Both the position numbers and the translations under genes were made by a program. A stretch of DNA of 43,477 bases from Candidatus Daviesbacteria bacterium (GTDB taxonomy: Bacteria; Patescibacteriota; Microgenomatia; Daviesbacterales; UBA10151). This document shows, one piece after another, positions 7,509-18,878 of this stretch (positions are counted from its first letter, which is position 1; each line of letters begins with the position of its first letter). The stretch covers positions 1-43,477 of the forward strand of contig JACPKL010000007.1 in NCBI GenBank assembly GCA_016187035.1, read 5' to 3'. The notes under the pieces are model-generated. The model worked only from the letters and a program-made list of their open reading frames with translations. It did no database searches and was not told where the DNA came from.

Positions 7509-7556
7509 CAGCTTCCAACCCCAGGGGTTAAATACGTTCAAACCCCAGGAAATAGC
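7509..7556. repeat. REP-like family A elements (about 1.5 copies) downstream of RAYT-1
   Basis: AGCTTCC-AACCCC-A-GGGGTT-AAATACGTTCAAACCCCAGG immediately after the transposase stop codon. Confidence 0.85.
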
Positions 7557-7557
7557 T

Positions 7558-8226
7558 TTATTCTAAGGTTAAATGCTTTATCATTCCCAATTCCCTTTGG
7601 TAATCTGCCTGATTAAACACAAATTCCCTATATTTCTTCTCATTAATAATACCTAAAATTTGCTTAGTATCCACAAAAGGATATCTACCCTCACCTATAT
7701 AATTTAATAAAGATGACCAGGGATAACTTTCTAAATCTTTAATCTCCACTAAATAGCTGGTGGAAGGGTTTAAATGAATATATCTTGAAACATGTAAAAA
7801 CTGTTCTTCTGTAGTGATTCTGACGGTTTTGAACATTGGCTGGAACAAAGGACCGTTTCTAGCAGATTTAGCATTAAAATATTTAGCATAGCTATTCTGT
7901 AAATTACTTATAAATTTAACAATCCCGCGGTCAAGCTTTTGTTTTAGGAGAAAGTGAAAATGATTATCCATCAAGCAAAAAGCTAATATCTCTATATGCA
8001 GATGATTTTCTTTTATTAAATCATCAAAAATTTGTTTTCTTTGCTCTCTTTCTATATTTTTTAATTGAGAAAAACTAACTGGAGTATTCTTAAAACGGTA
8101 GTAATTTATCAAATCCAGGAAACGTAAAAAATCTATTGAGGTTGAAAATATCGGTATCCCTGCAACAGCCCTATTAAACACATGGTAAATTTCTGAAGTG
8201 ACTATGGGAACTTTTCTATATGGCAT
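7558..8226 (-). mobile_element. REP-associated tyrosine transposase (RAYT/TnpA-REP-like, HUH Y1 family), copy 1
   Basis: YHVFNR, FCLMDNHFHFLL (HUH), YAKYFN, RYIHLNP (catalytic Tyr) and YPWSS motifs; family A palindromes on both sides; no tnpB nearby. Confidence 0.9.
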
Positions 8227-8237
8227 AATTCAATTAT

Positions 8238-8283
8238 AACCCTGGGGTTCAAAGCTAATCAACCCCTGGGGTTTGAACGTAAC
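8238..8283. repeat. REP-like family A doublet upstream of RAYT-1
   Basis: AACCCTGGGGTTCAAAGCTAATCAACCCCTGGGGTTTGAACGTAAC; encodes the C-terminus and stop of the adjacent substrate-binding protein. Confidence 0.9.
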
Positions 8284-9661
8284 GAAGAATTTTATCCAGA
8301 AGCTTCTCTGACTTTTTCAGATAAACTATGTTGTATTTGGGGAAATATAAAAAGGTGGCAGGGGCATCTTCCAAAAGACTCTTTTGGAAATCAAAGTACT
8401 TTTGCTGCCTGTCTTCTAAAGTGATAATTTTTCTGCCATCTTCCAAATCTTTATCAGTCCTTTTAGAATCATAACCTGTTAAATTAGTTTTAGTTTGGGT
8501 GGCATGCCACAAAAAGTATTGATCTGGATCCTTAGGAATACTTTGGGTAATCAGTAAAGCTGCAAAATTTTGCGGGATACCAGATTCAATTCGAAGCTTT
8601 ATATCCAATCCTAAATCTTTCCATGAACTTATCACTTTGTTTCCCACTTCCTCTAAATTAGGAGTAGTGGTTAAAATTAGCTCTTCTTTTAGCTTTTCAT
8701 CAGATATAGAAGATTTAGCCCTTTCTAAAGCGCTTTTAGCAAGATCTATATTACCTAGATACTTTTTAGAATCTGGGTTATATGCCCAAAGGAATGAAGG
8801 ATAAGGATTATTAGCTATCTCCTCTGAATCAATTTTAGGAGTTGCATAAGCCAGTGCTTGGCGTAAAGACCTGTTTGAAAGAAGGGGGTTTTTAGTCTGA
8901 AATAAGATAGTTACCATCTTGGAATAATCAGTTTTTTGTTGAAGCTTTGTTTGGGAATTGTTTGAAAAAACTTTTGGATTAGAAATTCCCAGTAAAGCTT
9001 GAACCTCTCCTAAATTAAATCCGGTAATTCCAACTTTTTCATTAGGGTAAAAACGAACATAGATAACAGGCAGCTGGGGGTTAACACTTTTTAAAACAAT
9101 TTTAGTGATAAAGACTCGGGATTTTTCAAGTTTGGCAATTTTATATGGACCCATACCTATCATTGTTCCTCTTTTAATCACAGGCTTAGTTAATAAACTA
9201 GGTAAGGGAGAATATGGCTCTTTTAAGTTAAATTGAATTGTTTTATCATCTGGATAGGACTGTTCCAAACCAGGGATAGCAAAACCTATATCCTTTGATT
9301 TTACTTCTGAATTATCAATCCATCTTAAATTATCTTTAAGTTTAAATTTAAATACAGTTGCATCATTATTAATATCCCAACCAATTACCAGCTTCCCTTT
9401 AACTTTACCGTTCTCATCAGTTTCCACTAAAGGTTGGGAAATCAACTCAGTTACTTCTGCTGGTAGGTCATGCTCCTGGTAAGTACCAATAAACCCAATG
9501 CTAATAGAGTAAGGCTTTGAAAGTAACTTAAACTTAATTTGGGCAAAGAGAACAACTGTTACTATAAAGAAAGATACGCTGAATATTCCTTTGTGTCTTT
9601 TGATAAATTCCAGGGCAATCAAAAACCAAAGCTTAAGATGAGAATTAAATATTTTTTTCAT
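8255..9661 (-). CDS. ABC transporter substrate-binding protein, family 5 (OppA/DppA-like)
   Basis: N-terminal TM anchor; FKFKLKDNLRWID, GMGPYKI, LRQALAYA and PATFLYFP segments typical of SBP family 5. Confidence 0.8.
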   Translation of the reverse strand: MKKIFNSHLKLWFLIALEFIKRHKGIFSVSFFIVTVVLFAQIKFKLLSKPYSISIGFIGTYQEHDLPAEVTELISQPLVETDENGKVKGKLVIGWDINNDATVFKFKLKDNLRWIDNSEVKSKDIGFAIPGLEQSYPDDKTIQFNLKEPYSPLPSLLTKPVIKRGTMIGMGPYKIAKLEKSRVFITKIVLKSVNPQLPVIYVRFYPNEKVGITGFNLGEVQALLGISNPKVFSNNSQTKLQQKTDYSKMVTILFQTKNPLLSNRSLRQALAYATPKIDSEEIANNPYPSFLWAYNPDSKKYLGNIDLAKSALERAKSSISDEKLKEELILTTTPNLEEVGNKVISSWKDLGLDIKLRIESGIPQNFAALLITQSIPKDPDQYFLWHATQTKTNLTGYDSKRTDKDLEDGRKIITLEDRQQKYFDFQKSLLEDAPATFLYFPKYNIVYLKKSEKLLDKILRYVQTPGVD

Positions 9662-14269: not shown

Positions 14270-14330
14270 GTGCGTCAACCTCGAAGGCCTTCGGCCGTGA
14301 GCCTCAGGCCGAATCGGTTGCAGGCTAAAT
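14270..14330. repeat. Family B element downstream of RAYT-2, interrupted by a 30-nt hairpin
   Basis: GCGTCAACCTCGAAGG-[CCTTCGGCCGTGAGCCTCAGGCCGAATCGG]-TTGCAGGCTAAAT. Confidence 0.85.
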
Positions 14331-18419: not shown

Positions 18420-18878
18420 ATGGTACAATTCTGCCAATTCATGGTAGAAACAGAAGAAGAATTAGGTCCAGGATTTGAACCTATAAGTCCAGAAATTAAA
18501 GAAGCGCTAGGTCATACAGATTCCCGTTTTCCAGCTTTATGGAAGAGAATAGATCAACAAATGAGAAAAACCTTTTCTATAGGCACAGACAAGAATAAGC
18601 TATCTCAATTAGCTGCGGAATGGCAAAGACTGGACGAGGAAAATGATGCAATATATCCATCTGAAGAAGAGCTTTCTCAACCATCAAGTCCTGAGGATGA
18701 AGCTGCACGAGTAGAGGAAAGTCGTGCAATATATCTATCCGCAGTAGTGCTCCCTCGACCATCAAGTCCTGAGGATAAAGCTGCACGAGCAGCTGATAAT
18801 CTTAGGGGTAGATATCCCCGACCTGCTCGGCTACAAAGGTGGGAAGCTAAACCCTTAATTCCTTTATCTGATCCCTAA
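18420..18878 (+). CDS. Hypothetical acidic protein with an internal 26-aa duplication
   Basis: 152-aa ORF; 78-bp in-frame tandem repeat; 3' end overlaps the end of uvrB convergently by 32 nt. Confidence 0.45.
   Translation: MVQFCQFMVETEEELGPGFEPISPEIKEALGHTDSRFPALWKRIDQQMRKTFSIGTDKNKLSQLAAEWQRLDEENDAIYPSEEELSQPSSPEDEAARVEESRAIYLSAVVLPRPSSPEDKAARAADNLRGRYPRPARLQRWEAKPLIPLSDP
18636..18789 (+). repeat. 78-bp tandem duplication (two diverged units)
   Basis: TGCAATATAT at 18647 and 18725; CCATCAAGTCCTGAGGAT(G/A)AAGCTGCACGAG in both units. Confidence 0.85.
18837..18851. repeat. Degenerate half REP-like element at the uvrB stop codon
   Basis: Minus strand TTTAGCTTCCCACCT; shares the TTAGCTT foot, and its TAG is the uvrB stop. 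Confidence 0.5.

Follow-up and report, generated by a model that had tools for sequence, protein, structure and literature searches.

A probable leaderless promoter resting partly on the REP doublet of a RAYT-like gene in a Patescibacteria genome

How does a tamed transposase gene that sits between copies of its own palindrome, close behind another gene, come to be transcribed? The question is raised by RAYT-1 of an ultra-small bacterium, a gene on the minus strand (7558 to 8226) of the window, by which we mean the whole 43,477-nt stretch of DNA analyzed here. The gene encodes 222 amino acids plus a stop codon, and the translation contains an HUH motif (HFHF) and a Y-motif (RYIHLNP). The protein matches PF01797 (Y1_Tnp) with an E value of 1e-9, and 23 homologs show little or no variation at H89, H91, Y149, N153, and P154. 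Against the NCBIfam equivalog for REP-associated tyrosine transposases (NF047646), RAYT-1 scores 47.1 bits and does not reach the cut-off of 80; it is a RAYT-like member of a distant class and not the gammaproteobacterial equivalog. A PDB sequence search with RAYT-1 returned no match, and it was the fold search that supplied a relative: the top Foldseek match of the AlphaFold model (pLDDT 89.2) is 4ER8_A, in which E. coli TnpA-REP is bound to a REP hairpin (E value of 1e-7 and TM of 0.69 on the target), with the TnpA proteins of ISDra2 and IS608 ranking below it (E ~1e-4). The modeled fold thus appears nearer to TnpA-REP than to the IS200/IS605 TnpA enzymes. The gene is flanked by inverted doublets of a palindrome that we call family A (arms 7513-7549 and 8241-8277, 81% complementary). 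A solute-binding protein (SBP) gene lies directly upstream of RAYT-1 or its ortholog in the genome studied (G000) and at loci L003 and L151, and nearby in genome G007, which suggests a gene fixed in its chromosomal place by vertical inheritance rather than a multicopy insertion sequence. The exact RAYT-1 protein was found in no other record.

The sequence-only reading of positions 8227-8283 (minus strand, cgttacGTTCAAACCCCAGGGGTTGATTAGCTTTGAACCCCAGGGTTATAATTGAATTATGCC) had proposed that the RAYT-1 promoter is assembled from the family A doublet, and its motif positions are correct by both the sequence and a promoter scan, which scores the site 10/12: TTGATT at 8262-8257, 18 nt, TATAAT at 8238-8233, 6 nt, and the ATG at 8226. 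The hairpin anatomy was also described accurately, with the -35 box in the outer arm, the foot and most of the inner hairpin as spacer, and the -10 box at the inner edge. The outer family A REP, TCAAACCCCAGGGGTTGA (8259-8276, minus strand), has the core AACCCCAGGGGTT (8273-8261) and an extended stem with one bulged A, and the end of its extended 3' arm supplies the TTGA of the -35 hexamer (8257-8262). This hexamer matches at 4/6 with TTG present and overlaps the SBP stop codon TAG (8257-8255). The 18-nt spacer, agctttgaaccccagggt (8239-8256), consists of the foot AGCTTTG and most of the slightly degenerate inner REP, AACCCCAGGGTT (8238-8249), whose final T doubles as the first base of the -10 hexamer. 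The -10 hexamer (8233-8238) matches at 6/6 and lies outside the REP consensus; it has a G at -14, so that the extended -10 element is half present, with GG and not TG preceding the hexamer. Between it and the ATG stand the 6 nt TGAATT (8227-8232), which contain no Shine-Dalgarno sequence. The ATG (8226-8224) is the first possible start of RAYT-1, an in-frame TGA lying two codons 5' of it. By every computational mark, the site looks like a sigma-70-type leaderless promoter with a transcription start at about 8226. Another -35 box, drawn from the foot of the inner REP (TTGAAC, 8252-8247) as in the canonical family layout described below, was considered and rejected as unproductive: the corresponding -10 would be AATTAT or ATTATG lying across the ATG, with no further in-frame start before a GTG at codon 16.

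Hexamer matches of this kind are not significant in themselves, since a scan of 3 kb of this 36% GC DNA found 5 promoter-like sites and shuffled versions gave 10.7. What makes the RAYT-1 site significant is its position. We used the 889 long ORFs of the 1.04-Mb, 13-contig genome, as delivered by a crude ORF caller rather than a trained gene finder, and found that TANNNT hexamers peak in starting at -12 from called ATGs (118 of the 889 genes versus ~30 at other offsets); strong -10 variants show the same peak (60 versus ~9), and the TATAAT of RAYT-1 sits exactly on it. The Shine-Dalgarno signal is very weak genome-wide. Among genes with a divergent neighbor 15-80 nt upstream, 62-64% have the hexamer at -12 to -14, which, taken with the -12 peak and the weak Shine-Dalgarno signal, suggests that leaderless mRNAs are the normal mode of expression in this organism; they appear, at least, to be the main one. 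Matches of at least 10/12 with a gap of 5-8 nt occur at 4.2% of gene starts versus 0.07-0.09% of internal ATGs, and TATAAT at a gap of 6 nt, the modal gap genome-wide and that of 33 of 75 RAYT loci treated below, precedes 10 of the 889 starts and none of 11,398 internal ATGs. The logo of the leaderless genes shows an extended -10 element, TGnTAnnnT, and a weak TTG near -35. In Actinobacteria and Deinococcus, leaderless promoters likewise place the -10 hexamer 6-7 nt before the start and have no Shine-Dalgarno sequence; RAYT-1, with its -10 box 6 nt before the ATG and no Shine-Dalgarno sequence, resembles them, and differs in that its host has a Patescibacteria/CPR genome. For this group, the literature searched held only passing mentions of leaderless transcription and no description of it.

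An internal control for promoter recognition lies ~750 nt downstream of the RAYT-1 promoter, where an FMN riboswitch (7473-7346, minus strand; Rfam, 88 bits) is preceded by TTGATA-17-TATAGT (7507-7479), ending 5 nt before the aptamer. This promoter directly follows the 3' family A doublet of RAYT-1 (7510-7556, plus strand), which is inverted relative to the 5' doublet and whose -35 equivalent is TTAAAT (3/6). The riboswitch heads riboflavin genes with ORFs of 195, 142, and 405 aa (7361-5130).

The gene upstream, encoding an SBP_bac_5 solute-binding protein (8255-9661, minus strand), ends 28 nt from RAYT-1 and overlaps the outer REP, from which its C-terminal VQTPGVD and stop codon are read (8255-8283). 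In the window, the protein ends in ...RYVQTPGVD*, and the L151 ortholog, around positions 340-372 of that locus, ends in ...LQVQTPGVD*, both with the TAG inside the -35/foot segment; the L003 protein ends in ...DLQLPKP*, 92 nt before the RAYT start and ahead of its REP, and that of G007 in ...KILSL*. At L082 (G007:C39, 2281-2919), in the genome that is the closest relative, the SBP gene and RAYT-1 ortholog are separated by an extra ORF of 212 aa, which G000, L003, and L151 do not have. The outer hairpin was flagged as terminator-like, with the tail GATTAGCTTT, and the RNA of the doublet folds at -18.9 kcal/mol (z -2.2). A strong intrinsic terminator was rejected for this hairpin, given a core stem of only 5 bp and a poor T tract; a role for the doublet as a 3' stabilizer or weak terminator of the SBP mRNA is plausible from its predicted structure.

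This arrangement invites the view that the boxes are a chance resemblance and that RAYT-1, having no promoter of its own, is expressed solely by read-through from the SBP gene. The shared strand, the short intergenic gap, and the lack of a strong terminator all fit such a view, as does the ease with which AT-rich DNA yields hexamer matches. Matches as good as this one, however, stand before only 0.08% of internal ATGs, no Shine-Dalgarno sequence is available for internal initiation, the boxes are conserved in L151, and the layout recurs in unrelated contexts, at all six paralogs and most of the 75 loci described below. We consider exclusive read-through very unlikely, and note that read-through may still be an additional source of RAYT mRNA.

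We then asked how much of the promoter belongs to the repeat. The family A core, AACCCCWGGGGTT, has 18 perfect copies in the genome, and the reversed control has none. Sixteen family A doublets could be oriented, the RAYT-proximal copy and 15 others. The slot corresponding to the -35 box reads TTGA(A/T)T in the RAYT-proximal doublet and in nine of the 15 others (TTAAAT or similar in the rest), and the -35 box is therefore repeat consensus. The -10 slot reaches 6/6 in the RAYT-proximal doublet only; in all 15 others it scores at most 4/6 and is typically TTAGCC-like, which is the next foot, so the -10 box lies outside the repeat and only its first T belongs to it. The proposal that the promoter is assembled from the family A doublet accordingly holds for the -35 box and the whole spacer but not for the -10 box. 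No dispersed REP of any family in G000 is followed by a -10 box and an ATG that opens an ORF of at least 50 aa, and the idea that REPs serve as mobile promoters for other genes was rejected for this genome on that ground. The most promoter-like dispersed family A doublet (C10:82151-82200) reads TTGAAT-17-TATATA and has no ATG-initiated ORF of at least 50 aa at leaderless distance. Core counts track the enzyme, with 18 in G000, nine in G007 (78% ortholog), and two in G027 (57%); four other genomes checked, where any paralog is more distant (55% identity or less) or no match was found, hold zero or one family A core. The family A population is largest in G000, which is consistent with an expressed enzyme there.

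A tblastn search found six RAYT paralogs in G000, 33-56% identical and each with its own palindrome family. They start at C1:241165, C1:14959, C1:229308, C10:69373, and window positions 8226 and 13611; relatives G001 and G028 have up to 10 paralogs in genomes of ~1 Mb. The stem differs from paralog to paralog, and the foot TAGC-TTG is constant in all. Each of the six has a -35/-10 pair in leaderless position, with 8-11 of 12 hexamer positions matched: TTGATT-18-TATAAT-6-ATG in RAYT-1 (R1), TTGCAA-17-TAAACT-6-ATG in RAYT-2 (R2), TTGACA-17-TATCAT-6-GTG in R3, TTGACA-17-TATGCT-8-ATG in R4, TTGACA-17-CATAGT-7-ATG in R5, and TTGACA-17-TTTAGT-6-ATG in R6. Four of the six score at least 10/12 versus the 4.2% background (binomial ~4e-5). 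The sequence-only reading had RAYT-1 following the same logic as RAYT-2 with a different stem family, and this is true in a loose sense only. In R2, TTGCAA and TAAACT both lie within the family B consensus, unlike the -10 box of R1, and the -35 box of R2, as in the canonical layout, is formed from the foot and the 5' arm of the gene-nearest REP, whereas that of R1 comes from the 3' arm of the outer REP. Two further observations were made in the region of RAYT-2 and beyond: its 3' family B REP (14270-14330) is apparently split by a GC-rich hairpin, GGCCTTCGGCCGTGAGCCTCAGGCCGAATCGG, and at 18636-18791 two tandem 78-nt copies, 83% identical, probably lie inside a coding region.

To the six loci of G000 we added 69 from 36 related genomes, giving 75 paralog loci in 37 genomes; the criteria were a little looser than in the genome-wide search, which makes comparison between the two approximate. 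A perfect TTGACA is present at 58 of the 75 loci, and 61 score at least 9/12. The -10 box has A2 and T6 in 70, the spacer is 17 nt in 55, and the gap to the start is 6-9 nt in 72. These promoters adjoin the 5' REP or sit inside it. In the canonical layout, the outer REP hairpin is followed by 5-8 nt ending in TAGC or TAGG and then by TTGACAC(C), which opens the cognate inner REP; this REP, often only a half, occupies the first portion of the spacer, and TAnnnT and then ATGCC complete the arrangement. In families C, D, and E, the gene-proximal copy has TTGACA and most dispersed copies have TTCACA, CGGACA, ATGACA, ATGAGA, or GCTACA instead, although two dispersed family C copies keep TTGACA. Such a difference between the copy near the gene and the mostly altered dispersed copies is what one would expect of selection acting on the box beside the gene and nowhere else. 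At RAYT loci of more distant Patescibacteria (L013, L015, L016, L018, L019, L027, L031, L073, and others), too, the spacer is filled by a hairpin, and T(T/A/G)GACA lies in its 5' arm. Taken together, the alignments indicate that a leaderless promoter adjacent to or overlapping a REP is a conserved feature of RAYT genes, and that the -35 boxes of the predicted RAYT promoters are, as a class, the best to be found in these genomes. Apparent GTG starts, deduced from alignment only, occur in leaderless position in R3 (C1:241165) and at L083, L088, L090, L091, L112, L121, L123-L125, L127, and L137; a GTG start is unusual for a leaderless mRNA, which normally needs AUG.

It might be argued that TATAAT with its G at -14 suffices, and that TTGATT is incidental, the REP adding nothing to initiation. 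The genome-wide leaderless logo holds little -35 information (0.14 bits at best), the TTGA(A/T)T of RAYT-1 is plain REP consensus that also stands in nine of 15 dispersed doublets driving nothing, and the long-form orthologs described below use other weak -35 boxes (TTGAAA, TTGTAA). Against such a -10-only promoter, RAYT-1 does not have the T of TGn that most promoters with a weak -35 box in this genome carry. Promoters with the G but not the T of this element have a -35 box of at least 4/6 in 67% of cases and TTG in 52%, with a background of 14% for at least 4/6. As a genome-wide rule, compensation between TG and the -35 box did not show in the mean -35 score (Mann-Whitney p 0.6), and only the TTG frequency differs (0.32 versus 0.18). 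The box of L151 is improved to TTGACT at the ideal 17-nt spacing, and the RAYT class has the perfect boxes counted above. We judge a promoter of the -10 box alone to be unlikely; with typical promoters of G000 carrying so little -35 information, the REP-borne box may nevertheless contribute little.

Orthologs of RAYT-1 show how the promoter came to lie where it does. A family A doublet is present at L001/L082 (78% aa identity), L003 (69%), L152/153 (67-68%), L002 (60%), and L083 (56%), and at these six orthologous loci the promoter lies beyond the doublet on its downstream side, in unique DNA of ~35 nt. The boxes of this long form are TTGAAA or TTGTAA, 17 nt, TAATAT, TATTAT, or TACTAT, and 6-7 nt before the start, those of L152/153 being less clear; they score 8-9/12, versus 10/12 for R1. 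Relative to the six, R1 does not have 29 nt downstream of the doublet. The same short form is found in L151, a metagenome ortholog (71% aa identity), whose sequence GTTCAAACCCCAGGGGTTGACTAGGCTTGAACCCCAGGATATTATTAGGTTATG reads TTGACT-17-TATTAT-6-ATG inside the doublet, its substitutions preserving or improving the boxes. An assembly artifact at the repeat was considered and rejected, as L151 comes from another metagenome and has the same junctions; the short form appears not to be private to G000. Since L002 and L083 branch earlier and are both long, the short form is probably derived. In a maximum likelihood protein tree, the order of R1, L151, L152, L001, and L003 is not separated, and the tree leaves undecided whether R1 and L151 are sisters; the two structural characters common to R1 and L151 suggest one event. 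In a MAFFT alignment, the TATAAT of R1 could derive either from the old -10 box or from sequence beside the old -35 box.

The sequence-only reading had expected a comparison with orthologous loci to be informative and had suggested a conserved design rather than chance. The comparison gave a divided answer: L151 has the same doublet-embedded layout, but L001/L082, L003, L002, L083, and L152/153 place the promoter 3' of the doublet. What stands against chance is the position of the boxes, their recurrence at all six paralogs and at 61 of 75 loci, and L151; the embedding in the doublet is not part of any fixed design, because six orthologous loci do without it. The overlap of promoter and doublet in R1 is best read as a derived compaction, not an obligatory layout.

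The same 29-nt loss could be taken to mean that the locus is decaying, in that the deletion killed the ancestral promoter and left RAYT-1 silent or nearly so, the hexamers being a remnant (TATAAT of the old -10 box, or TTGAAT at 8233-8228 of the old -35 box). R1 indeed is without the 29 nt that hold the -35 box and spacer in six orthologous loci, and the alignment is ambiguous as to which old box survives. Yet the ORF is intact with its HUH and Y motifs conserved, the short form is common to an ortholog at 71% identity and so has persisted with an intact gene, the R1 promoter at 10/12 is no worse than those of the long-form orthologs, and family A REPs are more numerous in G000 than in any other genome checked. 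A silent locus is, in our view, extremely unlikely.

The reading that we prefer, to which we assign a probability of about 0.7, is that RAYT-1 has its own housekeeping (sigma-70-type) promoter on the REP doublet and is expressed from a leaderless mRNA beginning at the A of ATG 8226, to within ~1 nt. RNA polymerase with the housekeeping sigma factor would bind TTGATT and TATAAT and start at this A, and the 70S ribosome would begin translation at the 5'-terminal AUG, as is predicted for a large fraction of the genes in G000. The -35 box would be formed from the end of the outer REP 3' arm and the foot, with the inner REP and foot filling the 18-nt spacer, so that the promoter overlies the hairpins that RAYT-1 is expected to recognize as well as the SBP stop codon and REP-encoded tail. 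The doublet would in this way do three jobs within 50 nt, as SBP tail and stop, as structured 3' end of the SBP mRNA, and as -35 box and spacer for RAYT. In evolutionary terms, the 29-nt loss would have taken the old -35 box and spacer, and TTGA(T/C)T of the REP would have replaced them. RAYT-type enzymes bind their REP hairpins (4ER8; PMC3333891), and RAYT bound to the proximal doublet could therefore occlude the promoter, a form of autoregulation. Both the use of the boxes by RNA polymerase and the contribution of the REP-borne -35 box are inferred here from sequence; the overlap would free RAYT-1 from reliance on read-through and possibly allow RAYT binding to limit its expression. In sum, the layout reported by the sequence-only reading is confirmed, its interpretation is partly supported, and the promoter is very probably real.

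The locus appears to be a partly conserved variant of the known REP-RAYT system, for which our comparison set comprised E. coli TnpA-REP/YafM with its BIMEs (PMC3333891, 4ER8), the Pseudomonas REPIN-RAYT, and the TIRYT/TnpA-Y1 class 2 (PMC3733652, PMC6006769). Like a REPtron, it has one Y1 HUH gene between inverted cognate palindromes, a palindrome dispersed in the genome, vertical inheritance marked by the same neighbor gene, several enzyme/repeat pairs per genome, and 4ER8 as best fold. It differs in the score of RAYT-1 (47 against the 80-bit cut-off), in its number of paralogs (six in 1 Mb, with relatives reaching 10), and in a promoter that can be read, leaderless, on the 5' REP. No definition of the native tnpA-REP promoter was found in the REP-RAYT literature examined; Ton-Hoang et al. 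use the word "promoter" only for a para expression construct, and Di Nocera et al. (PMC3733652) note that RAYT genes can be overlapped by their flanking repeats and that repeats "may function as promoters", a matter left "not tackled". At the left end of IS200 (PMC4513863), transcription starts at about nt 40, just 3' of a subterminal hairpin at nt 12-34 that also blocks impinging transcription, and the still-undefined IS200 promoter must therefore overlap the hairpin site of its enzyme. IS200, however, is a mobile multicopy element with a long structured 5' UTR that hides the Shine-Dalgarno sequence and with an antisense sRNA, whereas the RAYT-1 gene is fixed in place and is predicted to have no leader. 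Repeat-borne or "mobile" promoters have been described (Matus-Garcia et al. 2012, PMC3488235, as cited in PMC8049555), and the same paper quotes the speculation of Bertels and Rainey (2011) that REPINs act as promoters for which RAYTs are the transcription factor. Family A resembles mobile promoters in that a dispersed repeat bears a promoter box. It is unlike them in that dispersed copies have at best a -35 box, without a good -10 box, and drive no leaderless ORF; only the gene-proximal copy appears promoter-competent.

The fusion of a perfect TTGACA with the cognate inner REP at 58 of 75 loci leads us to a broader and tentative proposal, one we hold as possible but doubtful. A dual code may be written in the REP foot and the first bases of the stem, which read TAGC-TTG-ACAC in most families and GGGGTTGA(T/A)T-AGC in family A: the segment would serve as the tag and hairpin for RAYT recognition or cleavage and also as the -35 box of the leaderless promoter of the RAYT gene itself. 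If so, RAYT binding or cutting of the gene-proximal REP would compete with RNA polymerase, giving negative feedback that would hold the enzyme at the very low level on which stable REP populations depend, and each dispersed REP would bring a ready-made -35 box to its place in the genome. No definition of RAYT transcription and its low-level control was found in the literature examined, and a feedback of this sort, shared throughout a CPR family, would be the first regulatory circuit to be defined for a RAYT.

Because mRNAs in these CPR genomes are predicted to be leaderless, the RAYT promoter can be read straight from the sequence. A promoter placed on the hairpin substrate of the enzyme itself offers a testable model of autonomy from neighboring transcription and of possible autoregulation. 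The R1 locus would be an evolutionary snapshot of this arrangement, in which 29 nt were lost, the -35 role was taken over by a REP, and the tail and stop codon of the SBP were borrowed from the same REP, and it indicates how far coding sequence, repeat, and promoter may be overlaid in a 1-Mb genome.
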